Shown here piece by piece: positions 25,501 through 54,800 of a stretch of 64,000 bases of DNA. The stretch spans positions 12,067,130 through 12,131,129 of the forward strand of contig CM119263.1 of the NCBI GenBank assembly GCA_051294375.1, given 5' to 3'. The position numbers and the translations under genes are program-made. Each line of letters begins with the position of its first letter. Position 1 is the stretch's first letter. The notes beneath the pieces are model-generated. The model saw only the letters and a list, made by a program, of their open reading frames with translations, made no database searches and was not told the DNA's origin. The DNA comes from Paraspadella gotoi (Eukaryota > Animalia > Chaetognatha).

Positions 25501-28500
25501 CTTTTTCTTGAAGAGTTCTGTAAATCTAATAGACGTGAAAATTCTTACGAGCAATTCAATCTTTAAAAGTTGTTCTTACCAAAAAATCGCATATAGTTTT
25601 TATTAAATTAAGCAGATAACGAAATTTTATTTATTGTCTTAAAACATGTTTTACTGTATTTTAAAGACATAGAAATTCACTAATTTTTTTTAACTGAAGA
25701 ATGTCCAATATTTATCAATGGTATAAAAAATTATAATTATTAAAATTCCAAAATCATTGTCTAAAATACCCGAAGCAGGTATACAGCTCTAAATGATTGT
25801 GGGCAGTTCCGGGCATTGTTTGATCAGACTTTTTCTTCCCACATTCTTATTCACTAACAAATTTTTTTTCAGGCCATTAATACGATTTACCGGTACAATT
25901 TAAAGACAAATGCAAAAAGGTAATTTTTTTACGACTTTCACGTTTAATTATAATAATCAGACTTATTTTTATTTTTATTTTTATTTTTATCACGTGGTGA
26001 CCGTTCACCACATATTATACAATCGTTAATTATTAGTGGGGCCTGCTTAATAGGGATAATCAATGAAAAGGTAGCGAAATCGCCAACCAACTAGAACCAC
26101 ACCTGCGACTCCTGTGTGAATCGCCGGCGACATCGCTATTTGAATGAACTACAACTTAGCCTTCGTCTTAGGATAAATATTTAAAAAATATATACTTTAA
26201 TTATTTTTTTTTAAAAATCACTGAAAATTTTTTTTTCACCAATTGCTTTATGTAATAAATACAGGAGTTTGCTTTGTTCAATTTTTAAAATTTAGGTATC
26301 CTATAAAATGGTTCATACTTGTGTGCATATTTTTTATAATGAATTAAAGTTTTTCGATCTGGTATAGGAGCAGTAAGCTTTTCTTAACAAGCAGTACCAT
26401 TGGGACACACTGTACTTAGTTCATGCTATAAAAATTTAGTAAAAAATTTAACATGCATATACAATTATACATCATACTTGTGAATTCACGCGATCACCTT
26501 AAAGAGCGATCACATGACTCAAAATTTGATACGCTTGTGCTACCTCAGTTTTTAAAAAAATATAATTAAGAAAAAATGACGAAATTTCTATGCAGTGGGT
26601 CTCGAACAAAAACATAGCAACCCAGGATTGAAAATATCGTTCTTGTTTTTACAGATTAATTCAAATTGAAAATGCCCCGATTGAGGCAACAGAAATAGAA
26701 AAGCAGAAAGTTAACTATGATGAGTACAAAAACGGATTAACAGTGGATGTATTAATAACTAGTTACCTAGTTATAACACCTTTTTTTATCCATTTTATTA
26801 TTTTAGAGCGTATCACAGGAGCAAAACACGTTCAAGTAATTATCAATTCCATACATCATAGAATTATTGTAAAAGAACTGGATACAAAAAAGTATTCATA
26901 TACCCCGTGTCCTTTCGCGAGTGACACCGAAAAAATGGCAACTGTAATCGCATGGAAAATAAATCATGAATCGTTTTTTTTAATTGGTAGAAAAGAACTG
27001 GACATTTGTTGTTAACCAACAGTATGATTTTTCTTGTTGGTAACATTTCTTGACAGTATATCTATGTAACCGTAAAATTTATAAAGATTATTGATAGTCG
27101 GTGTTGCAGGTCTCGGTTTGGCATTTTTTATGATATATAAAACATATTTGTAATGAGTCTTCTTTATTTAATCTTCTTTATTTATTTTAGTGACTGTCTC
27201 TTAAGAGGAGGTCAAATTTGAAACTTCATCAATGTTATTTTCAAAATTTTTCTGATGATTAAAAAGTACTTAAAATTAACGTGAAAATAAATATAAGGTA
27301 ATGAACATGTAGCTTTTTTATCGTCGCAATCGCTTAGTGTTTGCGACAATATTGTAATGCTTTTGCGCATAAGTGGCGTCGGCGTCGTCGTCGTTGGCGT
27401 TGTCGTCGTCGTTCCAAATTATAGATCGCCTTTTTTATGATTAAATTTGGGTGTATGGTCGACTAAAATCCACCAACCGTTCATCAGCAGCCATTGGTGC
27501 CGGAGGCAAGTCATTCGCCTCCCAACCCAAAGGTCCGGGGTTCTAGCCCGGTGGTCGTCTGGCAGTTAAGAGGGACGGGGCGCTTAACCCGCCTGTAACA
27601 TGGTGTTACAGCCTGATCCGAAGCTCAGGGACTGCTTATATTGAACGGTTCTGTCATTAACACATATCAATAATTACTGTCTCTTCAGGTGTATGAAGCT
27701 AAAAATTTATATACAGCTTCTCATCATCGATGTACTTAAAATTGAGTCTGGACAGTTATTAAATATGTTTTGTTTACGTTTTATCAAAACAAACAAATTT
27801 TCTTTTATTTTCATGTTTCTTTCTCTCTCTTTTCTCTTTTAATTACATGTCCCTCTCCCTCTCTCTTTTCCCTAGTCACTGATTCATAGAGTCTATTAGA
27901 GAAAGGGAAAAAAACGAGTCTGCAGCTGGCTCTGCAGGGGCTCTTTCTTTTTCTCTTTCTCCTGCTGCTTCTGCTGCTGCCTTTTATTTTTTTTTATTTT
28001 TTCTGGGTGCCTCTGCAGGTGAAAACGATTTGGCTTTTTTCTCTCTCTCTCTCTCTCTCTCTGATTATTTTTTTTCCTCTTAAAACTTTTATTATCGTCA
28101 TTTATTCCCAAATTTACATCCGAGATTTTCATGGATTTTTTTCCCCAAATATTCTAAATATCAATCAGAATAATATTTTTTTTAAAATATATATTTACTT
28201 CACTTTGTTTTTTGTCTGGGAATGTTGACAGTGTTTAGAGAGGTCGCATTCGATCAAACTGCTCGCTTATGCGGGCTAAAAGTAAAACAAAAGTACCTAC
28301 AATAATGTCTCTCCAGACTTAGCACTTGCTAAAAATTAAACTCGAAAATAAGTTATTTTACCGTTTTATATTTATTATTCTTTATTATTTTTTTTTATTT
28401 TATTTTATTTTCTTTATTTTTCTCAAATTTGATTTTTTTAGTATCAAAATTTGTCGTCAATCCAGATTTTTCTTATGCTATTGCGACGATCCTTATGCTT

Positions 28501-31500: not shown

Positions 31501-34500
31501 TAATTAATAAATAATTAATAATTAATTCAAGTTATTTAGTAATTAATTTATTCAAGGTAATTATTTGTGTGAAGAAGGCTTGAATACCAAAGCCGAAACA
31601 TGTCTGTTTAATAAAAACAAATTCGTTGAAAACTAATAAAAACTTTGTTTTTCTCTAAAGGTAATTATTTAATTAATTAGCCAATTAATTTATTAATTTG
31701 AAATTATTAATATGGCTCTATACCCTAGTAATTAATTTTTAATATTATTTATAGATAGGAAAAGCCAAAAAAATTTTTAGAATTTTTAAATTTTTAAAAC
31801 CAGATTCAGATAGCTCATAAAAAGTTGTCTACACAAGTATAATTCTTTTTTAAATATTTTTATAATAAGTGTGTCAAAAAATAAGAAAAACCGTAAAAAT
31901 AATCAACATCATCATCTTTCAATAATTTTATCCAGTTTTTTTCATATTTTCACTTAAAAAACATAAGACTTTTTAAAAGCTGTATTATGTTTCTTGTTTA
32001 ACTTTTTATGCTCTATCAGAATCCATCAAAAAATTTTAAGATTTCCTAACAAAAAATTATTTGCTCTATATAGTAATATAATATTTTTAATTAGGCTAGT
32101 TCCCTCAGAAGAAAGCATTTTTGACAAAAAAATATTTGAATATCATAATCTATGGTCATGATAGATTATTTAACGTTGTATACATTAGCATTTAAATTTC
32201 ATCGGCAATGGCTACTTAAAGAAACGTATTAGATAGCTGAATTTCAAAGGGATAATGAAAAATGAAACAAAGTTAATTGAAAGTTAAAATGATTAGTCCA
32301 AGCCCCATTAAAATCGCTGATGAAGGTTCGAAAATAAGAACTGAAACATGTTCGAAATATTATTTTATCCTTAGAAATGGCAATTCAAACACAACGAAAG
32401 AAAGGAAATACCAAGGCTGGGCAGACTAATTTTTATGTTACAGCTTTCATAATTATATAACTCTCTTTACTTTTTTAAGGGCTTCCGAAAATATTAATAT
32501 TGATAATATTTGAGTGGGTAGAGGATTAAGCAAGAAATAAAGTTTTTTGAAATCATTTAAGTGAAAAGTTCAAAATAGAAAATGCAAAAATTAGTTTAAT
32601 AAATTTAATGTTAAATTTTTCTATAAACTGTAAAAGCATGTAACAACAAATGATCGTAGGCAGATCCGATATTATTTCTTCAAACTTCTTAAATAACAAG
32701 TTATTCCTACTCAATCTATCTCCATTTTAAGATGAAAATAGCTTCGTCTACTGTACTATATACCATTATTCATTACAGCTTGATTTACCAGCATAATAAA
32801 AACGCCAAATACTGCATCCTTAAAAGCAAATGAAAATATATAAAACAAATGGGAGCTGAGACATTCCAAAGAGAAGAGAAATAACGTACTTAAAGTAATA
32901 TCTTAATAATCAATTTTGAAAAAAATAACCATGGGCAATCTTGCCGATTTATTAATGAATCAAAAAATTGTTATTATGGTTGTACCGACCATCGAGTATC
33001 GACAATAGTTAATTTTATATCATATGTAACAAATCTATGAGAAATAATAATCCTTGAGGTTAAAAAAATTTAATACTTATAGTTAGTCCTCATAGTTGAC
33101 CACTGTCCTTTCTCAAATCTGTGTTGGAAACTTGCCTATTCCCTCTCTCTCTCTCTCTCTCAATCTTTTCTTCATGCACACAATTTTGTTCAAATTCACA
33201 AACTCTTTTTAACGCTGATGAAGGCTTGTAACTGAGCCGAAACATATCCGTTATTAATAAAAATAAATCGTTGTTGAAAACTAATTTCAAACTCTTCTAA
33301 TCATTACACAATGAAACGAAAGGATTACACCACAATACTTTTTAACATAATTTTTAAGTGGGAAATTAAAAATCGGTATTTTAAATATAGTTTGTTACGA
33401 ATTAACAAACTCAATATTTTGACGAATACCAAATTCTCTACTTTTCCCGATGCTCTTTAGTTCTTTCTTTGCTGACTCGAAGATTTTAATGGAACAGCAT
33501 TAAACTAATCCATTATTGTATTAATTATTGTGTTAAAATATTTTTTTGCAAAAATGTTCCGAAATGAGTAATTCGCTAATTAATATTATTATATCGCTAT
33601 ATAATGTCAAAAATTTTTTTGGATATGTTAAGTTTTTTTAATTTATTCTGATAGAGCTTAAAAAGTTAAGCAAAAAATATAATTACAACTTTTTAAAATT
33701 TTAATGTTTTATTATTAAAAATTAGTAAAAACTGTTAAAATCATTGGATGATGATGATGATGATGATTTTTTAAGGTTTTTTTTATTTTAACCCACTTAT
33801 CATCAAAATATTGAAAAAAGAATTATACTTTGTGTAGATAACTTTTCATAAGCTATTTGAATCTGCTTTTAAAAATAAAAAATTCAAAAAAAAATTTTGA
33901 CATTTCTTATCTATAAATAAATATTAAAAAATTAATTACTAATTGCTTCTTGCCATTTTATAAAATTTTGCTCCATTGAAAGTTTTCTCAGAAATGTTTG
34001 AAGTTTCATTTGGAAAGGTTCCCAAATCAAACTTCTGACCCACCCCATTGACGAAGCTTGGCTCTATCGAAGAAGCCTTTTTTCAAAGCAATTACTAGCG
34101 ACATCTTTTGTTTAAACTTAGTACGGATTCCGAGGCAGTGCATGGCGGATTCAACGATTTAAACTTCGTTTTGACTTTTGTCAACTTCGTTAATCTTTCA
34201 CTGCGTTTTTTTATCTCGTTCTGGCTCTGCAGCTATTGGACTATGGTTATCATCGATCAAACATTTGGTTATCATCGCATCAATGAATGATTATCAACAA
34301 TTAATGAATGACTATCATCATATCAGTAAATGACTATCATCGCGTCAATGAATGATTATCATCACATCCATAAATACTAAGCAACGCATCAATTAATAAT
34401 AATGAATAACTTTCATCGCAGTGAGGCAGTTTAAATGAGTGCCTATTTTCTTTGTTTCAATTTGATTCAAATATTTTTTGTTTGAATTTCCAATTCATTA

Positions 34501-37500
34501 TGATTTACTGCAATATGCAAATTAGATTATATTACTTTTCCATTGATTTTTCTTGATAGTAACGTCTGGCGAGATCACTATTCTTAAGATTTTTTGTACA
34601 ATATTGGCCCATTTTAGAGTAATGATTTTTTAAACTTTGTTCGGATTTATGTTTTTTTACACCACTAAGTCGATTTAAAAAACCGCGCTCACAAGCAAAT
34701 GGTATTTGATAATTTTTGATAGAAGGACTCTATAATTCACTTCTCTGGTCTGTCGGTCCGCCCCCTCAATCTTGTCGGGCATTATCTTATATCATGTCAG
34801 AACATCGAATTATGAAAAATTATGCAAAAAAAAACGAGTGTCTGTCCGTCCGTCCTGTCCCACCTTAGCAAAAAAACACCAATTACTTGTGATTGGAATG
34901 GATAGATTGGAATGAAATTTTGTGTATGGGTAGGAAGTGTGTGATTGAGCTGGATATGATGTTTCGATGGAATCGTCCAAGTGGAAATGCATTTAAATGG
35001 AAAAAACAAAAAAATTATATTTCACTATTTGAACATCAATTATCATGAGTGGATGGGGAGGATTGGCTTGAAATTTTGTTATTTGGGTAGAAAAGTGTGT
35101 GATTAGAACTGGAAATCAAGTTTTGATGGAATCGTTTGAGTGGAAATGATTTAAATAGAAAACAAGAAATCTGTTTCACTAATCGATTATGCAATCTTTT
35201 TCGTTTAAATATAATGCAATGTATTAATATAATAAAATAATTAATCAGTTAATTAATCAATTAGTCAATAATTAATCAATAATTAATTAATCAGTCAATT
35301 TAATCAAAACAAACATTTCAGATCNNNNNNNNNNNNNNNNNNNNNNNNNATAAGTAAATGCCCGACAAGATTGAGGGGGCGGACCGACAGACCGAGAAAG
35401 TGAATTATAGAGTCTTTATAAAAAATTATCAAATACCATTTTGCTTGTGAGGCGGTTTTTAATCGACTTAGTGGTGTAAAAAAAACATAAATCCGAACAA
35501 AAGTTTAAAAAATCATTACTCTAAAATGGCCAATATTGTACAAAAAATCTTAAGAATAGTGATCTCGCCAGACGTTACTATCAAAGAAAATCAATGGAAA
35601 AGTAATATAATCTAATTTGCATATTGCAGTAAATCATAATGAATTGGAAATTCAAACAAAAAATATTTGAATCAATATGAAACAAAGAAAATAGGCACTC
35701 ATTTAAACTGCCTCACTGCGATGAAAGTTATTCATTATTATTAATTGATGCGTTGCTTAGTATTTATGGATGTGATGATAATCATTCATTGACGCGATGA
35801 TAGTCATTTACTGATATGATGATAGTCATTCATTAATTGTTGATAATCATTCATTGATGCGATGATAACCAAATGTTTGATGCGATGATAACCATAGTCC
35901 AATAGCTGCAGAGCCAGAACGAGATAAAAAAACGCAGTGAAAGATTAACGAAGTTGACAAAAGTCAAAACGAAGTTTAAATCGTTGAATCCGCCATGCAC
36001 TGCCTCGGAATCCGTACTAAGTTTAAACAAAAGATGTCGCTAGTAATTGCTTTGAAAAAAGGCCTTCTTCGATAGAGCCAAGCTTCGTCAATGGGGTGGG
36101 TCAGAAGTTTGATTTGGGAACCTTTCAAATGAAACTTCAAACATTTCTGAGAAAACTTTCAATGGAGCAAAATTTTCATAAAATGGCAAGAAGCATTAGT
36201 AATTAATTTTTTAATATTTATTTATAGATAAGAAATGTCAAAATTTTTTTTTGAATTTTTTATTTTTAAAAGCAGATTCAAATAGCTTATGAAAAGTTAT
36301 CTACACAAAGTATAATTCTTTTTTCAATATTTTGATGATAAGTGGGTTAAAATTAAAAAAAACCTTAAAAAATCATCATCATCATCATCATCCAATGATT
36401 TTAACAGTTTTTACTAATTTTTAATAATAAAACATTAAAATTTTAAAAAGTTGTAATTATATTTTTTGCTTAACTTTTTAAGCTCTATCAGAATAAATTA
36501 AAAAAACTTAACATATCCAAAAAAATTTTTGACATTATATAGCGATATAATAATATTAATTAGCGAATTACTCATGGTTCGGAACATTTTTGCAAAAAAA
36601 TATTTTAACACAATATTAATACCAATAATGGATTAGTTTAATGCTGTTCCCATTAAAATTCTTCGAGTCAGCAAAGAAAGAACTAAAGAGCATCGGGAAA
36701 AGTAGAGAATTTGGTATTCGTCAAAATATTGAGTTTGTTAATTCGTAACAAACTATATTTAAAATACCGATTTTTAATTTCCCACTTAAAAATTATGTTA
36801 AAAAGTATTGTGGTGTAATCCTTTCGTTTCATTGTGTAATGATTAGAAGAGTTTGAAATTAGTTTTCAACAACGATTTATTTTTATTAATAACGGATATG
36901 TTTCGGCTCAGTTACAAGCCTTCATCAGCGTTAAAAAGAGTTTGTGAATTTGAAACAAAATTGTGTGCATGAAGAAAAGATTGAGAGAGAGAGAGAGAGA
37001 GGGAATAGGCAAAGTTTCCAACACAGATTTGAGAAAGGACAGTGGTCAACTATGAGGACTAACTATAAGTATTAAATTTTTTTTAACCTCAAGGATTATT
37101 AATTTCTCATAAGATTTGTTACATATGATATAAAATTAACTATTGTCGATACTCGATGGTCGGTACAACCATAATAACAATTTTTGATTCATTAATAAAT
37201 CGGCAAGATTGCCCATGGTTATTTTTTTCAAATTGATTATTAAGATATTACTTTACAGGTACGTTATTTCTCTTCTCTTTGGAATGTCTCAGCTCCCATT
37301 TGTTTATATATTTTCATTTGCTTTTAAGGATGCAGTATTTGGCGTTTTTATTATGCTGGTAAATCAAGCTGTAATGAATAATGGTATATAGTACAGTAGA
37401 CGAAGCTATTTTCATCTTAAAATGGAGATAGATTGAGTAGGAATAACTTGTTATTTAAGAAGTTTGAAGAAATAATATCGGATCTGCCTACGATCATTTG

Positions 37501-39786
37501 TTGTTACATGCTTTTACAGTTTATAGAAAAATTTAACATTAAATTTATTAAACTAATTTTTGCATTTTCTATTTTGAACTTTTCACTTAAATGATTTCAA
37601 AAAACTTTATTTCTTGCTTAATCCTCTACCCACTCAAAATATTATCAATATTAATATTTTCGGAAGCCCTTAAAAAAGTAAAGAGAGTTATATAATTATG
37701 AAAGCTGTAACATAAAAATTAGTCTGCCCAGCCTTGGTATTTCCTTTCTTTCGTTGTGTTTGAATTGCCATTTCTAAGGATAAAATAATATTTCGAACAT
37801 GTTTCAGTTCTTATTTTCGAACCTTCATCAGCGATTTTAATGGGGCTTGGACTAATCATTTTAACTTTCAATTAACTTTGTTTCATTTTTCATTATCCCT
37901 TTGAAATTCAGCTATCTAATACGTTTCTTTAAGTAGCCATTGCCGATGAAATTTAAATGCTAATGTATACAACGTTAAAATAATCTATCATGACCATAGA
38001 TTATGATATTCAAATATTTTTTTGTCAAAAATGCTTTCTTCTGAGGGAACTAGCCTAATTAAAAATATTATATTACTATATAGAGCAAATAATTTTTGTT
38101 AGGAAATCTTAAAATTTTTTGATGGATTCTGATAGAGCATAAAAAGTTAAACAAGAAACATAATTACAGCTTTTAAAAAGTCCTATGTTTTTTAAGTGAA
38201 AATATGAAAAAAACTGATAAAATTATTGAAAGATGATGATGTTGATTATTTTTTACGGTTTTTCTTATTTTTGACACACTTATTATAAAAATATTTAAAA
38301 AAGAATTATACTTTGTGTAGACAACTTTTTATGAGCTATCTGAATCTGGTTTTAAAATTTAAAAATTCTAAAAAATTTTTTTGGCTTTTCCTATCTATAA
38401 ATAAATATTAAAAAATTAATTACTAGGGTATAGAGCCATATTAAATAATTTTTTTGTCCATTGAAATTATTCTTAAAAATGTTGAAATATTCGTTTGAGC
38501 ATGTACTCACTTTAAATTTTTGACTCACCCCATTGAGTTGGGCTACCCCTACTTTAAGGCGGGAAAAGTAGTTTTCTTTGATAGGAAAACGTTTAAAAAA
38601 TGTCTTGAATCAAAGAAACGAAAAGAAATGAATTGAATAAAAAAAATGAAATGAACTTAATTGAATGAAATTAATTAAAAAGTAAACAATTATCTCGCCC
38701 AAGACGGACCTAAGCCCGTCCGGTGAGATAAAAAGTGGCTACTTTTTTTCGCCACAGTGTAGTGATCATATCATTTTCCTTTCTTAACTCCAGCTCATCA
38801 ATATATTGGGAATGTTTGTGCCTCCTATGATCATGATTCTTATTAATTTGATAACAGAAAATAAAGATTTTTTAGATGGTGTTGGACAATTTTTTGAATT
38901 GCTTCTTTCTCCTTATGCTCTTTCAATTGCGTTTAGTAATTTAAATGAAGTAAGTATATTAGGCAATTAAAAATTTATTTTATTTAAATTACCTTTTTAA
39001 TTTTTATTGGTTACAGCAGTTCCAACTCATTATTAAACAAGTTTGAACAAACAACGTCGGATCTGCCAACATTAGTTACGCTCATCAGCTAATGAAATGA
39101 TAACTCATTGTAAATATTAAAAATTTTTAGTCGAATCTGCTTATCAGCAGATGCCGACTCTATAATCCACTTTGTCGGTCCATCATTCGCCCCCCAAAAA
39201 ATATTGTCGGTAATATTGTCACTTATATCATCTCAGGACATCAAATTATGATAAATTAAGCAAAAAAACGATATTCGTCCTACCTCAGTGTGGTTGTCTG
39301 TCCGTACTCGTGGTTGGATGGATGGATTGAGATGAAATTTTGTATGTCGGTAGAAAAGTGTATGATAGAGTTTCGATGGAATCGGGCGAGTGGAAATGAG
39401 TTTAACATAATGAAAATAAGTCAAGTTATAATCCTTTAAAATGAAAGATATTATAAGTAAATAATATTAAAACAAGTTTGAGCAAACAATGTAGGATCTG
39501 CCTACGATAATTAAGTGGTAATAAGCTAACTTATCCAAAAAAGTTGAATCCTTCCCTCTTTCCATACATTTATTTGTTTGTCCATCCATCTGTAACTTTA
39601 ACCTATCATTACACTTGAGTAAATTGATGGATTGATCTGAAATTTTGTGTGTGGCCAGAAAAGAGGTGGATTGAGCTTAATCTTAAGTTTGGACAAAACC
39701 ATTCTGGTAGAAATTAATTTAAATTAAAAAAATATAAAATAATTTTAACTATTTATTTTTTCATTTTAAAAAGTAAAAATATATAA

Positions 39787-39819
<33 letters not shown>

Positions 39820-42800
39820 GTATAAACATAATAACAACAATGACTCTTTCTTTTTCTTACTCAATATCCCTCTTTATTTTTCTATCTTTCTCTCTCTCAA
39901 TCTATTTCTCATTTTCCTTTTTGATCTCTCATTTTTAACTTACCTTTTTTCAAGCTCCTTACTTTTTATACTTTTACCATTCCAATTCATCTCCTCTATC
40001 TTTAAACATTCGTGTGAGCTTTGTTTTATTCATAAAAGTATAAATATTAATTTAAATTTCAAAAAATTAAGTATTTTTTTAAAATTTCCAAAAAAATGAA
40101 CTGACCTATGCTCATTGAGAATTTTATTTCTACTCTAAAATAAAAGATATCAAAAAAAGAAAAAAATCAGATTGTAGCAAAATCAAATAGCTAAAAGCTG
40201 ATTTTTTTGAAAATTCAAAATTCGTTCTCTATTTCCAGATCTAAAATTCTCAATGCTCAAAATCTTTTTTAAGAAATAAAAATGTTTATGGTACAGAAGT
40301 ACAGTAGTCCGAACTGTTTTAAAATATACATAATATTACATATATTATTGCAATAACATGACTTAACTCAAAATGACTTCCTTATTCTTTGACTCAACAC
40401 AGGAGGAATACAGTAAAAAAAGAAAGTCAAATCTTGAAAAAGTGGAGAAAAAAATTCGTCATTTTAGTTTTCAAATTGATTGATCTAAAACTTTTATTTT
40501 CTAAATTCAAAAGTATGAAATAATGAATCAGAGAGTAAGATCTTTTTTTCAGCTATCATTTGGTGTATAATTATAATCATTTTTAATATTTTTTATCCAT
40601 ATAGTTTAACTGACATATCAAGGAGTACAAAATTTTGTCATAGATTTTCGCTACCACGAGTCTGCTTCTTACTGCCTTTTTACTAATTTTTCGTTTTTTG
40701 TAAATAAGTAAACGTTGAAGAGACAGTAATTATTGATAAGTGTTAATGACAAAACCGTTCAATATAAGCAGTCCCTGAGCTTCGGATCAGGCTATAACAC
40801 CATGTTACAGGCGGGTTAAGCGCCCCGTCCCTCTTAACTGCCAGACGACCACCGGGCTAGAACCCCGGACCTTTGGGTTGGGAGGCGAATGACTTGCCTC
40901 TGGCACCAATGGCCGCTGATGAACGCTTGGTGGATTTTAGTCCACCATACATCCCCCCTCCCGTAGGAAGAAGTCTGTTGCGTCTCTTCAGTGAATTGTT
41001 GTTGGTGGAAAGTTCGTCACCAAGTTGAGGCATGTCGCCTGATGTGTTCTGGGCAGAAAGTGCATTGCCAGGTTGAGGCATGTCGCCTGAAAGTGTTGTT
41101 GTTGCTGTTGTGTTAGGAAGTCGGGCTCACCAATGAAGAGACAGTAATTATTGATAAGTGTTAATGACAGAACCGTTCAATATAAGCAGTCCCTGAGCTT
41201 CAGATCAGGCTGTAAAACCATTTTACACGCGGGTTAAGCGCCCCGTCCCTCTTAACTGCCAGACGACCACCGGGTTAGAACCCTGGGAGGCGAATGACTA
41301 GCCTCCGGCACCAATGGCCGCTGATGAACGGTTGGTGGATTTTAGTCCACCATAACGTTATGGTAAAAGTAAAGGAAGTTTGGTAGAACCAAGCGCATGC
41401 AGTATTATTAATGTAAAGCTTTAAGTTTGGCTCACAGATTAAGAAATATGAAAAAAATTTGCCTGTCGAAAGTCAGGGGCAAGATAGCTTATTTTTTAAA
41501 TGAATGGATAATTTTTATATTGGTTGTACCAATTTCATGAAATAGTTTAAATGGTTAAATATTAGAGTGATGTGAAAATAATAAAATTATATAAAATTAA
41601 AATTTAGTATATAAAATATGGAAATAAAAACTAATATAAATTTATTTTTAAATTTTATACTTTAGTGGGTACCAGTGAGCTATATTTATATATAGTATTA
41701 AGTATATAATATTAATAGACTATAATTTCAAAAAAATGTAAATTTTTAAATTCTTTTATTAAGTTAGTAAAAAATATAAAAAACTATATTCAGGATACCG
41801 ATTTTCAATTTCCAGATTAAAAATATAGTTTTTTTTTAATGTTAACCTAATTAATGATATAATTTTTAAAAAAGATTTATATTTTCTTAAATCAACTTTT
41901 TGTAAGGAAACTGAATCTGTTCTCAGAATTTAAAAAAAAACATTTTAAAATTTTGACATTTTATAAGGGTAGCACTATATACAAAATAAGCTAACTGGGC
42001 TACTATATTAGTAAAAAAAAATTAATGTCAGATTAGTATTCACTAATATGATAGTTTTCAAGATATAATTTTTTTTTCTGAAAAAAAAACAGCAAACAAA
42101 TAATTGCGAGAATGGTTGCAAAAATATCTTATGTCAACAATAAACGTGAACAAAAAAGGAAAATAAAAAAGAAAAAGAGATCGGGAGACAAAGTCAAGCA
42201 ACTCCGTCCACATGAGACGGCAACTCAATCACGGGACTTCGGGAAGCGAGCAGGTCCCCGTTGTCGATATAAATGCTAAATTTTGATTTCAAACATTCAC
42301 TTCACCCTATTAAACATGTATTTTGCTTTTTCCATTTAAACTTATTTCCACTTATTTCCATCAAATCTTGATTTCCAACCCAATCACACACTTTTTAATT
42401 AACGTTCAAATCTGAGATGATATAAGTGTCTCACCGACAAGATAATGGGGGTGACCGAGAGACGGACAAACTTAACTAATGAGCCAGAATCTTCTTATTA
42501 GCAGATCCGGTTAAAAAACCTCTTCTTTCTTTCTTTCCTTACCCCCACAATGTGTCTCTTTCTGTCTTTTTTGATCAATCCATCAATCAATCAATAAATG
42601 GATTACCGCTGGCTAATATAATGGTTACTATCTAGGAAAAAGTATATCACATAATTTAGTTATTCAATAAAAAGTATACAAAACATGGATAAAAGATTCT
42701 TAATATTTGGTATGCCCTTTCTCGGCATTGACTACTATCTATATTCATCTGGGCATGCTCTTATACAGCAAATTGAGGTATGACCGTGAAATGTGTTTCC

Positions 42801-45800
42801 ATATCTTTAACGCAATTTTTTTCAGCCCCAATTTTAATGTTGAGCGTCTTTCCCTTTTTTATGAGAGCTATAATAGCATTTTTTTAAACCAAAAAAAGGT
42901 GCAAGACCTTTAGCATTGCCAAATTTAAAAAAAATTAAACTCTTTGAAATAAAAATAAATAATTAAATACTAAAAATAGTAGAAAATTAAACAAATTTTT
43001 TCACCATTTTTCATTAAAAGTAACCTGCCTGTAACTTCTAAACGATTTGACCTACAAAAAAATGGAAGGAAGCTTCTGAAAAAAAAATCAATATAAATTT
43101 GGAAATATTCTGATTTTTTTAAATCAAAAAAGTTTTCTAGTATATATCCTTTAATAAAAATGTGATATACTTTTTTTCTAGATAGTAGATTTAACCGTTA
43201 GGGTTAGACAGGCCCGCGGGCGATGGAGATGTCGTGGCACGTGAACTGAGAAAACTGAGGGAAAACTTAGGGATGTGGAAGACGATGCCGCGAGTAGTTC
43301 ACCGTGTTGGACATAAACTCTCGTTGTAATCCGTCGATTTTATTTACCTTTTGTAAAAGTGTTTGAAAACATAAACAATCGATATTTATTTGTTGCCCAC
43401 AAGTTCCCGAACTTCGGATCGAGCTGTAGTCCGTCACTACAGGTTGGATAGACGCCCCGGCGCGCTTTAATGTGTGAATCAGCAGGGCGCGAACCCGGTT
43501 GGGAGGAGCTCGTGCTAGCTCCGGCGCCATAGGTGCTTCTGATTCTCGGACGAGTAACTGGGTATGAAATACTACCGCTACAGGGATAGGGTTTGGATCG
43601 GGGCCTGGTTTAGAATTAGAGTTGAGTTGAATTTCCAGCTGGCGATGGAATGGAGTAGGTTTAGGGTTAAGGACGCGAAGCCGAGTCGCCGAAAATTCCA
43701 ATGGACTTGCAAAACAGACCGGGATAAAAACAAAATTAAAAATATAAATGAAAGAAAGAAAAATAGGAATCTAAATCTAATAATACCACTCCTATAGTTC
43801 GATAGAGACTTGATTTTCTCTTAATATTGTAATTATAGAACGGAGCCAAGAAGCGATCATGTGCGTTTCAAGTTATAAAAGCAAAGGATGTTTCTGCTTC
43901 TATTTTAAAAAACCCAGTGCATATCGGGTAAGAATAAAAATTAAAGTTATTAATGTTTCAGTTGAAAAAGTACCCACTGACGGAGGTATAAATGGGAACA
44001 TCATTAAACAAATTTGCCAATTATTTCAAAAGTCTTGCCAAGCAAAGTCTTTCATGCCCTCATTCACTCATTCACAAGGTATCAGCCAAAGGTTGAACTG
44101 ACTTCAAGCATATATGTAATAAAAGTAATATATATGAAAATCAATATTATTGAAATAATTCAGCGTATTATATTATTATCATTTTAAATTTTTTTATTAT
44201 TTTTTATAAGTATACCTAATTTTATTAGTATAATTATTTTTTGATAATTTGCAAAATTACATATTTCACTATTTTCTATTTTTATATTTTTTAAAGGCTT
44301 TACTATTTAATCTAAATTATTTAATTACATATAAATTGCATTTAAAAAAATTAATATAATTGAAAAAATTAAATAGGTCATAATATTATTACTTTTAAAA
44401 GATTGTATGAAATTTAAATATTTATAATCCTTAAAAGCTTAATTTAAAATCTAATCTAGTTTTAAAAAAATTTAATTTATTATTTATAAAGAAAATTATT
44501 TAAAAATAAATAAATTATTTATGTTTAATGAAAATTTGCAAATTATTATTATTATATGTACAGAAAGGAAATTGATTTTTATAATAAAAATAAACTTATT
44601 TTTTGGGTGTATTTCTATTTAATATAATATTTAATATTTTTTTCTTTCGGTCTTTTAAAATTTATGAAAGATTTTAGTGACCGAGAGGAAATAGCGTCGC
44701 CATGCCTCTCTGTCTCTGCCCCTCAGTCCAGACTTAGTGAGCTCAGTGGGTCTGTGAGATTTTACCGTCAATTGCCTTGCTTTCCGGAACTTCGGACCCG
44801 GCGATAGGCTACTACAATATCATAAAAGAAAAATATAAGAAAAGAAAAAAAAATAGCAAAATAAAAAAGAAAAGTTAATTACAAAATTAAGGTTATATTT
44901 AAAAAAAAATGAAAATAATCAATGACGGTGATAGCCGCGCAGAAGTCTTGATCAATACTATGGGAACTAAGAACAGGATGTAGTCGGGCATTGCCTAGGT
45001 TCACCCCGCCTATAAGTAGCGGTAGCCGACCAAATTCAAATTTTATTTTTTAATGGGAACAGTATTAAACGAATCCATTATTGGTATTAGTTATTGTGTT
45101 AAAATATTTTTTTTGAAAAAATGTTCCGAACCATTCGCTAATTAAAATTATTATTTTGCTATATAATGTAATTTTTTTTTTTATATTTTAAGTTTTTTTT
45201 AATTGATTCTGATAGAGCTGAAAAAGTTGAGCAAAAAATTACTGAAAATTAGCAAAATCTATTAAAATTGTCGGATGAGGATGAGTTTTTCCTAATTTTG
45301 ACCCACTTATCAAAATATTGAAAGAATAATTATACTTTGTGTAGACAACTTTTATAAGCTATATGAATCTGCTTTTAAAAATACAAAATAAAAAAAAAAT
45401 TTGACATTTCCTATTTATAAATAAATATTAAAAAATTAGCCATTTTAAAAAATTTTGGTCCATTGTCAATGGACCAAAATTGAAAGTTTTCTCAGAAATG
45501 TATGAATTTTCATTTGGGAAGGTTCCCAAATCAAACTTCTGACCCACCCCATTGACAAAGATTGGCTCTACTATAAGCATGACACTTTCAGTTGTGACCC
45601 TGTGGCTCATTGAGTAAAGCCATCAGTTCATGACCACTAGGTACCGGGTTCAATCCCAACCCAGTACCTACCCTGTGGGAAGCGTGAGGACAGCCGTAAG
45701 CTGCCTTGGGGGCATGACAATCCCTCAAGCATGGTTCCAAGCCCAGGGATCCGTTCCATGGCTGCTAGAGAGGGTTATAGAAGTTACGGACAGTCATCTT

Positions 45801-48800
45801 TAGCCCACGTAACGCCTTATCCACAAGGCTAAGTGTATTTATAGCTTAGAAGAGGATCGACACGGGTAGATTTTCCATCGAGCTTGCAGTGTTGCAATCG
45901 CATTAGTCGATTCCATCCTTGAGTCATTCGCCCGATCCTCTGATCCGTTTTCAATTCTCGAAGGGTTAAAGGTCTTTTGATGATGACTAAGGTCATCTTA
46001 ATGACTGTGGTCAATTAGAGTTAATAGGAGTCACCCGAGAAGGAAGGTGGCCTGTGGTAAGTCGCCTCTTAAGTTTAATAATCCGCTGTTATTGTTTTTC
46101 AGTGAATTTTTTTATGACTCTATATTTTGGGGAGGAACAACTTTTTCGATAGATCAAGCGATTAATTACTATGGCAATACTAAAGCGTTTTATTTTGCTG
46201 ATCGGCTCACTATTCAGGATGTTGCCGATGAAGAAAGCGGCTATGATGCCGTTTGCAAGGTAGATTTAAAACAAATTAAATAAAAAAAAAAGTTTGAGCA
46301 AACAATGTCAGGAACCCTCATGATACTCCTAATATTACTATTTTGCTTTAAGAGGAAGGTTTGTTCACCGTAACCATGCGTGAACTTAAATGTGATACAG
46401 CTCTGACATCAAGAAAGACATCGTAGCTACGAGTTAATGAAATTCGTTGTTCAAAAGAAAAACAAACTATTCTCCTTTAATGATAATTCTTATAAAATAT
46501 TTATAATTCTTTTGTCATTTTAATAGAATTATAAGTTTTGAATCAAAACCCTGTAGGAAAAGTCGCTTTTAAAGCAAAATTTATTTGTAATTTACAAAGT
46601 AATTACATTTTAAACATAGGGAAAAGTTTTTAGATGGTTTTGCTCTTTTTAAGGAAAAGTCGATTTACAGTTAAATTCTCTTATGGTGGACTAAAATTCA
46701 CCAAAGTTCATTAGCGGCCGTTGGTGTACGAGGCAAGTCATTTGCTTCCCAACCCAAAGGTCAAGGGTTTTATCCCGTATAGAGGGACGCGCCGCTTAAC
46801 TCGCCTGTAATACGGTGGGCCTTGTTTGCCCAGAACGCCCTATTTTATCTTAAAATCGGAATTAACTTAATTTATTTTGGCTAAAGATTAGGTTAGAAGT
46901 TAAGATTAGGGATTGTTTTATAAGTTTAAAAATTTATTTAAATTAAATATTATAGTTAAAATTTAATTCTGGGAAAAACAAACGGAAAGGGGCACTCTCT
47001 CCAAATGAATAGTTTTGGGTAATTACTTGTTTAGAAGCGCTTTCAATGTTTACTTAATTCGGGTAAAATACTATAACTTTGTTCTTAACTGAAAAAAATC
47101 AATTAAGGTTTATAAATCAGTGGGAAAAAAATCCTTTCTCGGTTACCCTATTGTGAGACATTGCTGCAAAATTGAAATGGTAGACTATTACGCCTGGAAG
47201 CCCCCCGGAATCGGACGTCAACTCTTCTTTTTCTTCATCCAGGTAAATTTGATTCAAAAAAAATTTACATACTTTTTACTTACTTTTTACACAATTTTTA
47301 ATAAAAGGAAAAATACTGTAAAAGTAGTATTATATCTTTAATTTTTAGCCAACCAAATTCAAAATTTAATGGGAACAGCAATAAACAAATAGGTTATCAA
47401 TACTCCTGATAGTGTTAAAATATTTTTTTGAAAAAATGATCCAAATCAATACTAATTCCCTCTTCAAAATTATTATAATCTGGTGTGCCCATCGAGTTAA
47501 AGCTTTCCTTAACATTGCCCAAGAGGGTCATTAGATTCATGGATTATCTCAATGTTCGAGCCCTTAGTTTGTCATTTAGAAAGTGAAATGGGCCAAGTAA
47601 TCCGCCGGTAGTCTGGATTCTGGACGCCATGACTACTCTGTCTCAACATGAGGTAACACACAGTTAAAGCTTTGAGATTGCCTTGTAGAAAGTGAGATGG
47701 ACTGGGTAACCCGCCAGTAGGCAAGGGCCTGCCTCCAGATCCAAAACTCTTGACTCCATAAACACATATACTGTGTATAATGTAAATTGTATATGTATAT
47801 ATAAATTAGGTCACGTGATCAGAATTTTAATGCGGCATAGTTCGTGTAATGCTTGCTTATTTTTGTTGATTTTTAGTTGCGCCGCAAGTCCTCGCGCAGC
47901 AACTCTATAACCCACTTTTCAGTCGGTATGTCTGTCTGTCGATCTGTCCCACTTACGTTAAAAATGCTCATAACTCGCCTGTTCATTTGTTAAGTGACTG
48001 CTAGCGCCGCCATCAGGAAATCCTAAAACAGAATAAAAGACAAAATTCCGATGCAGTGCGTGTCATAAATACATTGCAGCCATATCATGTCGTGTTATGT
48101 AAATAAATAAATAAATAATAAAAAATAAAATAAAATAATAAAATAATAAATAGATACACATGAAAATAAAGTCACTGTGGCGCAACACATTGGATGAACC
48201 GATCTTGTTAAAAGATAAGTGATAAACCATAAGATTATTTTTGGGCATGTATTTTATATTTGTTTTGCCAAATAACCACCAAAGAATGCTTTCTCGATAG
48301 AAAGTCAGTGTAGCGCAACACCTTGAACTTCGGTTTTTTAAAAAAATTGGCCCTACACTTATTAGGATGCCAGGTCCATTAGAATCAAAAATTTACAGTG
48401 AGTACATGCTCGAACGAAAATTTAGACATTTTTAAGTTTACTTTCAATGGACAAAAAAAATCTCTTATGGCTCTATACCCTAGTAATTAATTTTTTAATA
48501 TATATTTATAGATAGGAAATGCCTAAAATTTTTGTGAAAAATTTTAAATTTTAAGACCAGATTCAAATAGCTCGTAAAAAGTTGTTTACACAAAGTATAA
48601 ATCTTTTTTAAATATTTTTATGATAAGTAGGTCAAAAATAAGAAAAACCGTAAACAGTTGTCATCATCATCTTTCGATGATTTAATTGGTTTTTTTAGAT
48701 TTTTATTCAGAAAACGTAAGAATTTTTAAAAGCTGTAGTTATATTTCTTTTTTTAACTTTTTTTGCTCAATCAGAATTAGGGACCAACTCCAGAGATAAT

Positions 48801-51800
48801 ATAAAATTTTGACTATTAGTAAAGTATTTTTAGTTATCTTGACTAAATATTTAAGATTTCTTTTTCAAAAAAAAATTTACATTATATGTCTTGATTAATA
48901 CATTAAATATTACTTGTCTTTTTTTATATTATAAATTTTTTTTTTTAAATCTTAAAATTTTTTGATAGACTCTGATAGAGCATAAAAAGGTAAACAAGAA
49001 ATATAATTACAGCTTTTAAAAATTCTTATCATCTTTCGATGATAAAATAATCGAAAGATGATGATGATGAAGATTTTTACAGTTTTTTATTTTTGACTCA
49101 CTTATAATGAAAATATTGAAAAAAGATTTATACTTTGTGTTGACAACTTTTTATGAGCTATCTGAATCTTGTCTTAAAAATTAAAAATTATCAAAAAATT
49201 TTTGCCTTTCCTATTTATTAATTAATATTAAAAAAATAATTATTTGGGTATAGAGCCAGATAAGAAATGTTTTGTCCATTGAAAGTATACTTCAAAATGT
49301 ATAAATTTTCGTTTGAGCATGTAATCATTCTAAATTTTTGACTCACCTCATTGAGTGGGGCTACCCCTATCAGAATCTATCAAACAATTTTAGGATTTCA
49401 AAAAAATTTTTCTTATAATTAGGCTCGTACCATCAGAAAAAAGCATTTTTAAAAAAAAATATTTTAATACTATAATCTATGCTCATGATGGATTATTTTC
49501 ACGCTGTATACATTAGCATTTAAATTTCATCGGCTATGGCTACCATTAGTAATTAAGTAATCTTTTCAGAAGTAAACAGATTCCTCAATTTTTTTATTTC
49601 GAAATCGAAAACGAAAGTTTTGAATAGAACGACTTTTAATAACAATAGTTATCGAAAAAAGAGAAAAATACACAATTTCTAAATCATATTAAGCAAAATA
49701 TTTTATCAGGAACAAAAGTATATTTAAACTACACCAGATATTATTTATATGATTTTTCTGTAAACTTGAAGTTGCTGATTACCATGGCTTGTCTTCTCAT
49801 TCCTTAGATGATGATTTACACTAACATTCTTCTCATTATCGAGTGGTCGATGTTATGTTGCAATCGAGGAAGAACCCGTGTCAAAAAAATAATTATCAGC
49901 GATGAGGACGACGACGACGTGACGGCGGAAAATTTGCTCGTCAACAAATATATCACGGATCAACGCCTCCTTGAAGGCGGAGCGACAGATCCTCATTTGG
50001 GGATGACGCTTCTCCGGGAAGGCCGACCCGCTCTCGTTATTTCCCATGATGACCTTATTGTTCACAACCTGGGCAAGTCGTTTGGGAACTTTAAAGCTGT
50101 CGACGGAATTTCTTTCGTTGTTCCCAAGGTTTTTAGAAGGGTCTTTGTACAATGTACAGTTTAGCGCTGTAAAATTTTTTAAAATCAAATAAAAAACTTC
50201 GAATAGTGGATCATGAAAAGTAGGTGGCCTGTTCAGTGTCCCCACCAGTGTGGATAGATAGCACTCTTCAGCTTACTAAGCACTTCATACTGGGCTGAAA
50301 ACCACCCTTAAGCCTTGTTCCAAACCAAGGACCCATTCCATGGCTGCCAGAGGGGGTGAAAAACGTTATGAAGAGCATTCTTCAGCCCACTTAGCGCCTT
50401 ATACACACTGGGCTAAACTTCTTTTTCTACCACTATTTTTAACCCCCTCTAGCAGACATGGAACGGGTCCTGGGCTTGGAACCAGGCTTAAGAGTTTTCC
50501 TCACCAACGAGGCAGTTTACGGTCGTTGTCACGCTTCCCGCAGAATAGGTACTACTGGGAATTGATCCATATACCTCATGGTCATGAGTTGATGGTATTA
50601 TTCAATTAGCCACTGGGTCACGACTGAATGAATCATGCTCATAGACGGGGTGAACTTATGCAATGCCCGACGATAAAACTTGTTATAAAACAATTATTGC
50701 GTAAACCTGCTATTGTCAGGGTCAACTTTTTGGTCTTCTTGGATTAAACGGAGCCGGGAAATCTACAACCTTCAAGATGTTAAGTGGAGAAATAGGAATC
50801 ACTCACGGTTTGTATTGATTATTAACCGCAATATACTTAGATTTGCGAATACTTATGAAAGAGCTATTATACGTATGCAAAAACAAGTTGCTGCGCGAAT
50901 AAATGTAAATCGCTTTCAAGGGTTTAAACTGAACCATTATTGCGGTACAAATTGAAGAGACAGTAATTATTATTATGTGTTAGTGATAAATTAATTTATT
51001 AATTAAATTATATTATTTTAGTTTATATAGTTTGTATTAATTATAATACCGCTAATGATCTGTGGGCAGATCCAACATGTTTTGCTCAAACTTAGTTCAG
51101 ATTACGTATCACTGATCTTACTATACCGCCCACTTCCGGCCAATTTTGTTATTGAAACCACATTCATAAATGCATTATCCTCGATAAAATCACACCTTTC
51201 TTCATTTAAAGATGAGACGAGAATGAAGGAAAGAAAGGAGAGGTAATTAAAAGAAGAAAGAAAACTAAAATATAAAAAAAATACGAGAAACCGAGACAAC
51301 ATCAAAAAGCAAATATAAAATTTTAGCAGAATTTTTTTAGGATGTTCTCGCTATATATCTGATATAATTAGGTAAATTTTACATACATCTTATGATTTTT
51401 TCAGGCCATAAAATACTACTAATTCTAATATAACCTTACAAAATTGAGTTGAAAATTCGCGTTATTGCAGTTTTTAGAATAGGTTTAAAAAATAGGTGTT
51501 TTTTGACCATTTTTAGGGCTTTTTGAGGTCCTGTATTTCTTTCATGGGTTATCACAAATTTAAAAAATTTATATTAGTATCAGTAATTATATTCACCAAT
51601 AAGATTTTGCATAAATTTTTTTTAAAAAAATATTATTTATCAAAAAATCATATTTTGTTAGTTAATATATTAAAAATCACTATTTAGTTTAGTATAAAAA
51701 ATTATAATTTGATTACGAAGGATAAGAATTGCCTATCATCAACTAATATTTTCTATAATAAAAAGTTAACTAATAAATAAAAAAATAAATAATAGCTAAT

Positions 51801-54800
51801 TATTATAATATAGCAACTATGCATAAATATTAAAAAAAAATTTTTTATCAGTCTAACACTTTTCCATAGGACCAAGTAATGTTAAGTTAATTTTTAATTG
51901 AGAAAAAAATATATCGTTGAGTATTTTTGAGCAACAGTATGCAAATTAAATTTTTGTTTAAAAATGATGCTTCAAAAACAAAACTTCAAATTTTTTTTTT
52001 GAAATATAGAATGGGAATAGACCATACGAGTTTCCATCCACACATGCATATCAAGTCATTTCCATTCATTATTATTAGAAGATATAGCTTCTGGACTTAA
52101 TGATAAGGAAAAGCCAAGACCGAGTACTGGTAAATGCGGTAGAAAGTGTATGATAGAGGTTTCATTGGAATCGCGGCGACTCTAGTGGAAATGAGTTTAA
52201 CCTAATGAAAATTAAAGTCAATTTATAATCCTTTTAAAATGAAAGATTATTATAAGGCAATAATATTAAAACAGTTGAAATCAAACAATGTAGGATCTGC
52301 CTACGATAATTAAGTCAGGTAAAAGCTAACTTATCCACAAAATTGAATCTTCCCTCTTTCCATTACATTTATTTGTTTGTCCATCCATCTGAACTTTAAC
52401 CTATCATATACACTTGAGTAAAATTGATGATGATCTGAAATTTTGTTGTGTTGGCCCAGAAAAGAGGTGATTAGCTTAATCTTAGTTTGGACAAAACCAT
52501 TCTGTAGAAAAGAAATTAATTTAAAATTAAAAAAATATTAAAATAATTTTTAACTATTTATTGGTTTTCAAATTTTAAAGACAGTAAATTAATTATAGAT
52601 GATATATAGATAAACTTCAATAATAATAATATATAAGGGTAATATAAGTATAAACATAATAACAACAATGACTCTTGTTTTCTTACTCAATATCCCCTCT
52701 TTATTTTTCATCTTTCTCTCTCTCAATTATTTTCCCTCATTTTCCTTTTTGATCTCTCATTTTTCACACTTACCTTTTTTCAAAGCTCTTTACTTCTCTA
52801 TAGTCATCCATTCTCTACCATTCAATAACCATCTTCGTACTGTGATCATCTGACTTTCTTTTCATAGAGTTAAATATTAATTTAATATTTAAAAAATTAA
52901 GTTTATTTTTTAAAATTTTCCAAAAAAATGAACTTTTTGACCTATGCTATTGGAAATTTTTATTTCTACTCTAAACATAAAAGATATCAAAAAAAGAAAA
53001 AAATCAGATTGTTAGCAAATCAAATAGCTAAAAGCTGATTTTTTTTGAAATTCAAAATTCTTCTCTATTTCCAGATCTAAATTCTCCATGCTCAAAATCT
53101 TTTTAAGAAATAAAAATGTTTATGGTACAAGAAGTACAGTAGTCCCACTGTTTTAAATATACTATATTACATTATTATTGCAATTAAACTGTACTTAACT
53201 CAAATGATTCCTTATTCTTTTTGACTCAACACAGGAGGAATCAGTAAAAAGAAAGTCAATCTTGAAAAAGTGGAGAAAAAAATTCGTCATTTTTAGTTTC
53301 AAATTGATTGATCTAAAACTTTATATTTTCTAAAATTCAAAAATATAAAATAATGAATCAGAGAAGTAAGATCTTTTTTCAGCTATCATTTGGTGGTATT
53401 GATTACAATAAGGTCATTTTTACTATTTTTGGTTCATATAGTTTAAATCTGACATATCAAGGAGTACAAAATTTATCGTCAAGTTTTCCTACCACGAGTC
53501 TGCTTCTTACTGCCTTTTTAACTAATTTCCGTTTTTTGTAAATAATAAACGTTTGAGAGACAGTAATATTAATTAAGTTGTTAAATGATAGAACTCAATA
53601 TAAGCAGTCCCTGAGCTTCGGATCAGGCTGTAACACCATGTTACAGGCGGGTTAAGCGCCCCGTCCCTCTTAACTGCCAGACGACCACGGGCTAGAACCC
53701 CGGACCTTTGGGTTGGGAGGCGAATGACTTGCCTGGCACCAATGGCCGCTGATGAACGGTTGGTGGATTTTAGTCCCCATACATCCCCCCCTCCCGTAGG
53801 GAGAAGTCTGTTGCGTCTCTTCAGTGAATTTGTTGTTGGTGAAAGTTCGTCACCAAGTTGAGGCATGTCGCCTGATGTGTTGTGGGCGAAAGTGCATTCG
53901 CCAGGTTGAGGCATGTCGCCTGAAAGTGTTGTTGTTTTGCTGTTGTGTTGGAAGTCGGGCTCACCAATGAAGAGACAGGAATTATTATTATGTGTTAATG
54001 ACAGAACCATTCAATATAAGCAGTCCCTGAGCTTCGGATCAGGCTGTAACACCATTGTTACAGGCGGGTTAAGCGCCCCGTCCCTCTTAACTGCCAGACG
54101 ACCACCGGGTAGAACCCCTGGGAGGCGAATGACTGCCTCCGGCACCAATGGCCGCTGATGAACGGTTGGTGGATTTTAGTCCACCATAACGTTATAGGTA
54201 AAAGTAAAGGAAGTTTGGTAAGAACCAAGCGCATGCAGTATTATTAATGTAAAGCATTTAAGTTTGCTCACAGAATTAAGAAAATATTAGGAAAAAATTT
54301 GACTGAATCGAAAGTTCCCAGGGGAAGATAGACTATATTTTTTAACATGAATGGATAATTTTATATTGGTAGTACCAAATTTCAATGAAATAGTTAAATG
54401 TTATAAATATTAGAGTGATGTTTGAAATAATTAAATTATATAAAATTATAATTATGTATAATAAATATGGAAATAAAAACTAATATTTAATTATTTTTAA
54501 ATTTTATTACTTTAGTGGCGTAACCATGTGAGCTATATTTTATATATGTATTAAGTATATTAAAGTAGAAATACTACTATTGAAATTAAATTCAAAGGGG
54601 CGGGTTCAAAACTTATCTTGAAAGTCTACTTTTAAGAGTAAAAAAGAATTTTTAAAAAAGTTCGATTTTAATGCTTTTATTGTTGCTTTAAAATTACAAT
54701 ATATAACATATAATGTAAAAAATTTTTAATCAATCTTAACTTTTTTCTTTGAATGAATTCTAGTAGAGCATAAAAAGTTAAATAAAAATTTAACTATAAC

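Follow-up and report, generated by a model that had tools for sequence, protein, structure and literature searches.

A 64-kb stretch of the genome of the chaetognath Paraspadella gotoi (contig CM119263.1; "the window" from here on, with all coordinates given on its full length) contains a 639-bp element at 40716-41354, which we call family 1. It is a terminal-repeat retrotransposon in miniature (TRIM) of Helenus type, and each of its two long terminal repeats (LTRs) carries a transfer RNA (tRNA)-like segment with A and B boxes and then a fold of the type-P5 twister ribozyme. Taken together, these features make it likely that the element works as a twister LTR retrozyme, the RNA steps of which we predict below.

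Anatomy and Copies of the Element

The element was initially annotated as having two LTRs, a primer-binding site (PBS) of tRNA-Trp type, a polypurine tract (PPT) and a 4-bp target site duplication (TSD), and this is borne out by BLASTN, by the PBS match and by the flanking ACGT (Table 1). On the minus strand, a 5′ LTR of 221 nt, an internal part of 184 nt and a 3′ LTR of 234 nt follow one another, and the PBS TGGTGAGCCCGAC at 41132-41120 shares 12 of its 13 bases with the tRNA-Trp-CCA PBS of Kojima (2024, Fig. S2). The LTR ends (TA…CA) and the position of TG between the PPT and the 3′ LTR were fixed by contigs of public sequencing runs (loose ends at 27454 and 27687). This focal copy has been damaged: 13 nt are missing from the tRNA-like part of its 5′ LTR, which also has three flaws in the ribozyme (loop UCUGAAGC, the first P3 pair broken, and a T4 run also present), and the two LTRs differ by 10 substitutions besides the 13-nt gap. 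The intact motif is found in the duplicate of the insertion at 53553-54188 and in the solo LTR at 27454-27687, the latter being our reference.

Family 1 lies at eight places in the window (BLASTN), two of them duplicates of others, and a 4-bp TSD (ACGT, GGTG) flanks two of the four independent insertions that have both ends. Because one public run (X1) holds 18,083 contig records of it and the empty-site joint of the 27454-27687 solo LTR occurs in the contigs of all four runs examined for it, family 1 is an abundant, insertion-polymorphic TRIM. Summed read depth was rejected as evidence of copy number. The reading frames over the copies matched no Pfam family; a scan of 70 frames gave two sub-threshold Pfam matches. 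A run from a second organism (X10) contains a family-1 LTR-PBS junction, the empty site of the 27-kb insertion and a piece about 94% identical to family 2 (see below), and run X9, which is only guessed to be RNA, covers the flanks as the DNA runs do. Within the internal region, a sequence of about 19 nt is directly repeated at 41110-41010 (minus strand), and each copy could fold into a small hairpin.

A Twister Fold in Each LTR

In the reference solo LTR, the order is P5 (7 pairs), the 3′ strand of P2, GA, CGG, a hexamer, UAA, CCC, GC, P3 (8 bp), P4 (5 bp) and the loop UCCGAAGC. Both pseudoknots, T1 (2 bp) and T2 (3 bp), are entirely Watson-Crick, and the conserved twister elements GA, UAA, GC and L4 U…AAGC are all present. 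Twister bases follow the accepted numbering. The core equals the Rfam Twister-P5 consensus but for a single pair of T2, in which both partners are exchanged, and a folding program recovered P5, P3, P4 and the open L4 without guidance. The 5′ strand of P2 is just 3 nt long, giving two pairs, a bulged A and one further pair; P1 as a hairpin would be a single G·U pair with a 4-nt loop, and would have six pairs if two copies paired. All of the pairings named in the initial annotation, including CGG/CCG and GC/GC, are there. The fold stands as described, but the motifs that were quoted for it mix different LTR copies, and the 5′ LTR of the focal element has it only imperfectly. The predicted U^A cuts in the two LTRs are 418 nt apart by coordinates, in agreement with the monomer of about 418 nt foreseen there; in the solo LTR the cut would fall at 27585/27586.

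A general descriptor, relaxed after the motif had been seen, matched four LTR copies in the window, one of 559,651 dinucleotide shuffles of the LTR and two of 1,304 shuffles of the window; the pattern of the initial annotation had four matches in the window and none in 100 shuffles. Common family-1 variants in the run contigs either retain pairs (27555, 27558 and 27561) or fall in the P3 loop. The replacement of C-G by A-U in P3 of the 5′ LTR of the focal element was set aside as evidence, as it occurs in one copy of a noisy assembly and not in the duplicate of that copy. It is very likely that the fold is a twister kept by selection, and it is probably active.

The tRNA-like Segment

The Helenus-type tRNA-like stretch claimed for each LTR is supported by the A and B boxes, which are spaced 44 nt apart; ARAGORN called no tRNA in the window. 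In family 1, box B contains an exact GGTTC and box A (TGGTG..GG) deviates from TRGCY; the boxes of family 2 are TGGCT and GGTTCAATCCC, and such boxes are found in all three of the families described here. The acceptor-like stem is maintained by G·U/G-C exchanges at 27555 and 27558 in the run contigs. Transcription by RNA polymerase III (Pol III) from this segment is likely; the Pol III promoters of published Helenus elements are themselves unvalidated (PMC10886601).

Sister Families and Covariation

A model built solely from 30 phage twisters ranked family-1 copies in the top 5 of its 14 matches, and its next matches define a second family; a third was found with a model of both families. Family 2 begins with TGTAG, has tRNA-like boxes and a 4-bp TSD in its solo copy at 21 kb, and is abundant as well (3,349 records in run X1); among the copies seen, none had two LTRs and a PBS. 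BLASTN detects nothing significant between it and family 1 (best E 0.05), yet the ribozyme cores of the two families are colinear and gap-free from P5 to T1, with the same bulge in the 3′ strand of P2, again an 8-bp P3, and GGA/UCC in T2 where family 1 has CGG/CCG. Family 3, at 43398-43582, retains P3, P4/L4 and P5, with several core bases lost, and many window copies are decayed.

With nine copies aligned, 90.8% of 152 cells are paired, and 5 of 17 pairs, two of them in T2, have changed on both sides between families 1 and 2. The compensatory changes fall in pseudoknot T2, P1, P2 and P4, and none of 500 shuffles attains either the percentage paired or the covariation score. The initial annotation had staked the fold on a covariance-model match or covariation; of these, the Rfam match is absent and the covariation, taken against family 2, is present. 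Among the 12 listed family-2 variants of at least 8% within 45675-45754, six keep or restore a pair, the other six fall in the loop of P3 or the bulge of P2, and none is in the core; where the 45-kb copy mispairs, the pairing letter is carried by most of the read depth.

The 5′ end of the LTR is a short hairpin in both family 1 (41354-41335, minus strand) and family 2 (21267-21230, minus strand). The 3′ part of a family-2 LTR is present as an inverted duplication at 50265-50495, and an Rfam match to MIR869 was rejected, being the inverted duplication in a family-2 copy. At 60950-61140 (plus strand) and its duplicate at 47570-47762, there are two tandem decayed twister-like segments (UAA, 3 nt, GC, hairpin), matched by model R2 at E of about 1e-6, with no tRNA-like part recognized.

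A Self-Complementary Hexamer in Place of P1

The hexamers that stand in place of P1 are self-complementary, reading GGCGCU in family 1, CGGCCG in family 2 and GGCGUC in family 3 (self-pairing at -8.3, -10.7 and -6.3 kcal/mol, respectively); in the background, 4 of 106 hexamers are self-complementary. The innermost pair, which is impossible within one hairpin, differs between families, being C-G in the first and G-C in the second. CGGCCG is the sequence of the 21-kb copy and of the majority letters in the reads, the other two window copies being one base off. In the 53553-54188 copy, the swapped dimer is nested and is 5.7 kcal/mol better than two monomeric cores (constrained energies, pseudoknots left out: -182.9 kcal/mol swapped, -177.2 as two monomers, -190.0 with the competing helix discussed below). 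A 9-bp helix flanks the ribozyme module, and the end of the LTR has a 9-bp match to the internal region. The initial annotation had missed the hexamer, as it had the sister families and the competing helix.

Amphibian hammerheads whose closing stem is a single pair with a palindromic tetraloop cleave as dimers, and the units so released are circularized by RtcB (PMC7229834). Because the self-complementary segment follows the design of those dimer-cleaving hammerheads, the two LTR ribozymes probably cut together as a swapped dimer. That the dimer is a real requirement is somewhat less likely than not.

Phage Twisters and the Rfam Model

In a control, 15 of 17 phage loci matched an Rfam twister family. 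As seen on those loci, the Rfam P5 model expects a long P1 and a P2 of 4 bp and leaves out P3; family 1 escapes it because its P1 is tiny, its P2 short and a P3 present. These departures have natural counterparts. A scan of phage DNA for a 3-nt P2 gave 125 matches that were examined, 15 of them with P1 and P4 stems, and 14 of those 15 pair all of P2; in an alignment of 18 hand-picked loci, such P2 stems have changes on both sides. For a CGG/CCG T2, 21 of 126 phage matches pass the stem filter, most being near-identical copies of one sequence. A short P2 and a CGG/CCG pseudoknot therefore occur in predicted natural phage twisters. Relatives were not found in a metagenome scan (57 matches, none through the stem filter) or in viral scans with family-specific strings (no matches in one, seven matches without L4 in another). 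Among about 2,600 natural twisters tested, flaws in P1 and P2 were reported to be tolerated and flaws in the pseudoknots were not (PMC11662667); the present motifs may be among those tested.

The phage type-P5 twisters with a 3-bp P2 are shorter than the Rfam consensus, sometimes with several on one contig (L123, L135, L136, L142, L143, L147, L171, L172, L175, L183, L197, L236 and others), and three phage contigs (L486, L518 and L099) carry tandem twisters back to back, with few bases between them.

Table 1. Features of families 1 to 3 in the 64-kb window
Feature	Positions	Strand	Details
TSD, 5′ side	41355-41358		ACGT
5′ LTR	41134-41354	-	221 nt; 13-nt deletion in tRNA-like part; ribozyme imperfect
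tRNA-like segment, 5′ LTR	41263-41321	-	Acceptor-like strands 41321-41315 and 41269-41263; A box 41313-41302; B box 41282-41272
Type-P5 twister, 5′ LTR	41185-41260	-	Predicted cut 41236/41235; L4 UCUGAAGC in this copy
Internal part	40950-41133	-	184 nt
PBS	41120-41132	-	tRNA-Trp type, 12/13
Internal 9-mer	40982-40990	-	Complementary to last 9 nt of LTR; predicted long-range helix closing internal domain
PPT	40952-40962	-	Followed by TG at 40951-40950
3′ LTR	40716-40949	-	234 nt; TA…CA ends
tRNA-like segment, 3′ LTR	40845-40916	-	A box 40908-40897; B box 40864-40854
Type-P5 twister, 3′ LTR	40767-40842	-	Self-complementary hexamer 40824-40819; predicted cut 40818/40817; L4 40786-40779
TSD, 3′ side	40712-40715		ACGT
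Solo LTR, family 1	27454-27687	+	TSD GGTG; empty site in 4/4 runs examined
Reference twister, solo LTR	27561-27636	+	P5 27561-67/27630-36; P2 27570, 27572-73/27588-90; G27574, A27575; T2 27576-78/27618-20; hexamer 27579-84; UAA 27585-87; T1 27591-92/27623-24; P3 27593-600/27604-11; P4 27612-16/27625-29
Same insertion as focal copy, in duplicated (or uncollapsed) stretch	53553-54188	-	Core and pseudoknots retained in both ribozymes
Two-LTR copy, family 1	62735-63269	+	3′ LTR internally deleted; TSD not clear
Old solo LTR, family 1	19006-19248	-	Ribozyme decayed
LTR, family 2	45571-45825	+	5′-truncated; tRNA-like segment, then P5 twister 45675-45754; T2 GGA/UCC; duplicate about 58976-59226
Solo LTR, family 2	20978-21267	-	290 nt; TG start; TSD CAGT; hexamer CGGCCG 21110-21105; ribozyme core decayed
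Copy, family 2	50440-50671	-	Followed by inverted duplication of its 3′ part
Family 3	43398-43582	-	Decayed; A box 43529-43518; B box 43495-43485; hexamer GGCGUC 43456-43451; duplicate near 56844-56929

About 40700-48050 and 53500-61420 are related by a duplication of about 13 kb with 94-100% identity and many small indels, perhaps a haplotype that a noisy assembly left uncollapsed, and a near-perfect inverted repeat with arms of about 2.5 kb joins about 32030-34600 with 35500-38120.

Discussion

The way in which the element would work as a retrozyme can be set out as follows. Transcription would start at the tRNA-like segment, probably by Pol III, and the transcript would cut itself at U^A in both LTRs to give the 418-nt unit. 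The ribozymes of the 5′ and 3′ LTRs would probably swap halves and share a 6-bp P1, cutting then being favored once both LTRs had been transcribed. The flanking 9-bp helix, together with the complementarity of the LTR end to the internal region, would keep the ends in place and close off the internal domain. The unit would be ligated into a circle; because it lacks a terminal repeat, a circular template would be needed for reverse transcription primed by tRNA-Trp, an argument already made for plant retrozymes (PMC4918200). The circle would be copied in trans by an autonomous LTR element, and the helper is likely to be of Gypsy type; the PBSs of animal Helenus match Gypsy (PMC10886601).

A number of results weigh against this reading. 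Rfam, run on the window and on single LTRs, gave no twister, tRNA or other credible family and no hammerhead, and it gave no twister for family 2 either, the gathering score of RF02684 not being reached. The phage-only model scored family 1 weakly (about 21 bits, E 0.008-0.019, with the wrong UAA register in the top three) and gave 19 bits to a copy without the 5′ half, so that its score comes mostly from P4/L4. The covariation is essentially one split between two families, and 239 of the 500 shuffles attain the count of five pairs; CpG-type transitions in core pairs make up 2.6-13% of the depth in run X1 (at most about 4% in runs X5 and X9). Each of the A and B boxes has one mismatch to the consensus. 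As to the hexamer, the palindrome is perfect in only one of the three family-2 copies in the window, and none of the five passing loci (111 examined) in the viral and prokaryotic collections was a P5 twister with a palindromic hexamer. The competing helix pairs 27576-79 with 27588-91 and outdoes the nested active fold by 7 kcal/mol, and a pair of such folds outdoes the swapped dimer by the same margin (pseudoknots unscored in both cases). Twisters without P1 cut at a near wild-type rate (PMC5408937), so the dimer may not be needed.

Other explanations can be weighed against it. An active twister might serve only to make the 3′ end, replacing a terminator, with the 5′-LTR copy left uncut; the linear RNA, beginning at the tRNA-like segment and ending at the 3′ cut, would then carry about 100 nt of terminal repeat and be reverse-transcribed like Cassandra. 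Such a repeat would permit ordinary strand transfer, the competing helix could slow the first ribozyme, and many published Helenus LTRs have, by eye, a T-run right after the B box, the place that the ribozyme takes in the present LTRs. We nevertheless hold this to be unlikely, as the same ribozyme is found in both LTRs, partition-function runs reveal no consistent asymmetry between the two, and the shared palindromic P1 predicts paired cuts. The 53553-54188 copy has no T4 runs, which is not significant by itself (by our estimate, about a 1-in-5 chance event) and was discarded as evidence.

It is less probable still that the twister is a fossil captured from a short interspersed element (SINE), an RTE element or a non-LTR retrozyme, or that the competing fold keeps it trapped, either of which would leave an ordinary Helenus TRIM. 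The missing Rfam match, the short P1 and P2, the preference of nested folding for the competing helix and the decay of many window copies would all fit such a history, but the core bases and both pseudoknots are preserved, compensatory changes included, in families that cannot be aligned elsewhere in their LTRs, and common variants avoid the core. Nor does it seem at all probable that the retrozyme is fed by Pol II or by read-through, with the tRNA-like part a structural remnant or SINE relic: two cuts would remove the need for a 5′ end defined by the promoter, and the imperfect boxes, the lack of a tRNA call and the unvalidated Helenus promoters leave room for it, but the box spacing, the acceptor-like stem kept by exchanges and the presence of boxes in all three families speak against it. 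The reading that we prefer remains that of a twister LTR retrozyme.

Among known systems, the closest are the Helenus TRIMs (Kojima, 2024; PMC10886601), which are likewise short (<1000 bp) and non-coding, with two LTRs, a PBS, a PPT and tRNA-like A and B boxes in the LTR. Animal Helenus share the 4-bp TSD, and Helenus-2_SyJa and Gypsy-32_NVi the Trp-type PBS. The Helenus TRIMs differ in that no ribozyme is described for them in the accessible text of that paper, where "twister" has 0 occurrences. None of the Helenus families listed there has the family-1 PBS or P4/L4 string (a string search in which line breaks could hide a match, and an inspection of the animal families by eye). Family 1 has the Helenus features tested and equals no listed Helenus family, Repbase and Dfam being outside the comparison. 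Inspection by eye, and no more than that, suggests a type III hammerhead in the LTRs of Helenus-2_SyJa and Helenus-2_SyUm (Data S1 of the same paper), which also use a Trp PBS. It would lie immediately behind the tRNA-like part (7-bp stem I, CUGAUGA, 4-bp stem II, GAAA, and some 12 nt of complementarity between loops I and II), and it is not mentioned in the paper.

Plant LTR retrozymes (Cervera, 2016, PMC4918200; PMC9695139) also have a ribozyme in each LTR, a PBS, a PPT, a 4-bp TSD, no coding capacity and a unit RNA that lacks a terminal repeat (predicted in our case); they have a type III hammerhead, a Met PBS and a unit of about 700 nt, in contrast to the twister, tRNA-like internal promoter, Trp PBS and 418 nt of family 1. 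The metazoan non-LTR retrozymes with dimeric type I hammerheads (PMC7229834, PMC7761336) have a one-pair closing stem with a palindromic tetraloop and circles of a few hundred nt (again predicted here), and schistosome repeats include a tRNA, but these are hammerhead elements without LTRs, PBS or PPT. With type-P5 twisters as modeled in Rfam (RF02684), the present ribozyme shares the core bases, T1, T2 and P4/L4, and it departs from them in the features of P1, P2 and P3 noted above. The Perere-3 twisters of Schistosoma (PMC8501958) are likewise associated with a retrotransposon, but Perere-3 is of the autonomous non-LTR kind and has a single twister, of P1 type, at its 5′ end.

The initial annotation knew of no twister-bearing TRIM with a tRNA promoter, and we found none in the literature, nor any natural dimeric twister or LTR retrozyme outside plants (in a search that did not extend to Repbase, Dfam, the supplement of PMC11662667 or the majority of subscription papers). 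Each part is of a known kind; what is new, to the extent checked, is their combination, along with the sister families and the dimer signature. A more far-reaching reading, which we think less likely than not, is that the three families belong to a whole group of LTR retrozymes outside plants, Pol III TRIMs that move via circular RNA cut by a strand-swapped twister dimer, which would be the first natural dimeric twister.

Twisters have been assigned almost no biological roles, and the link to retrotransposons that has been noted is that of the non-LTR Perere-3; LTR retrozymes have been described with hammerheads and in plants only, animal retrozymes being said to lack LTRs, PBS and PPT. The element described here would unite the TRIMp3 and retrozyme lines and would explain in concrete terms how the RNA ends of a Pol III TRIM are set. 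The Rfam P5 model misses whole high-copy families, and more are probably hidden in repeat libraries. If the reading as a whole group is true, then, together with the apparent hammerheads of Helenus-2_SyJa and Helenus-2_SyUm, it would mean that TRIMs with tRNA promoters have recruited self-cleaving ribozymes more than once.

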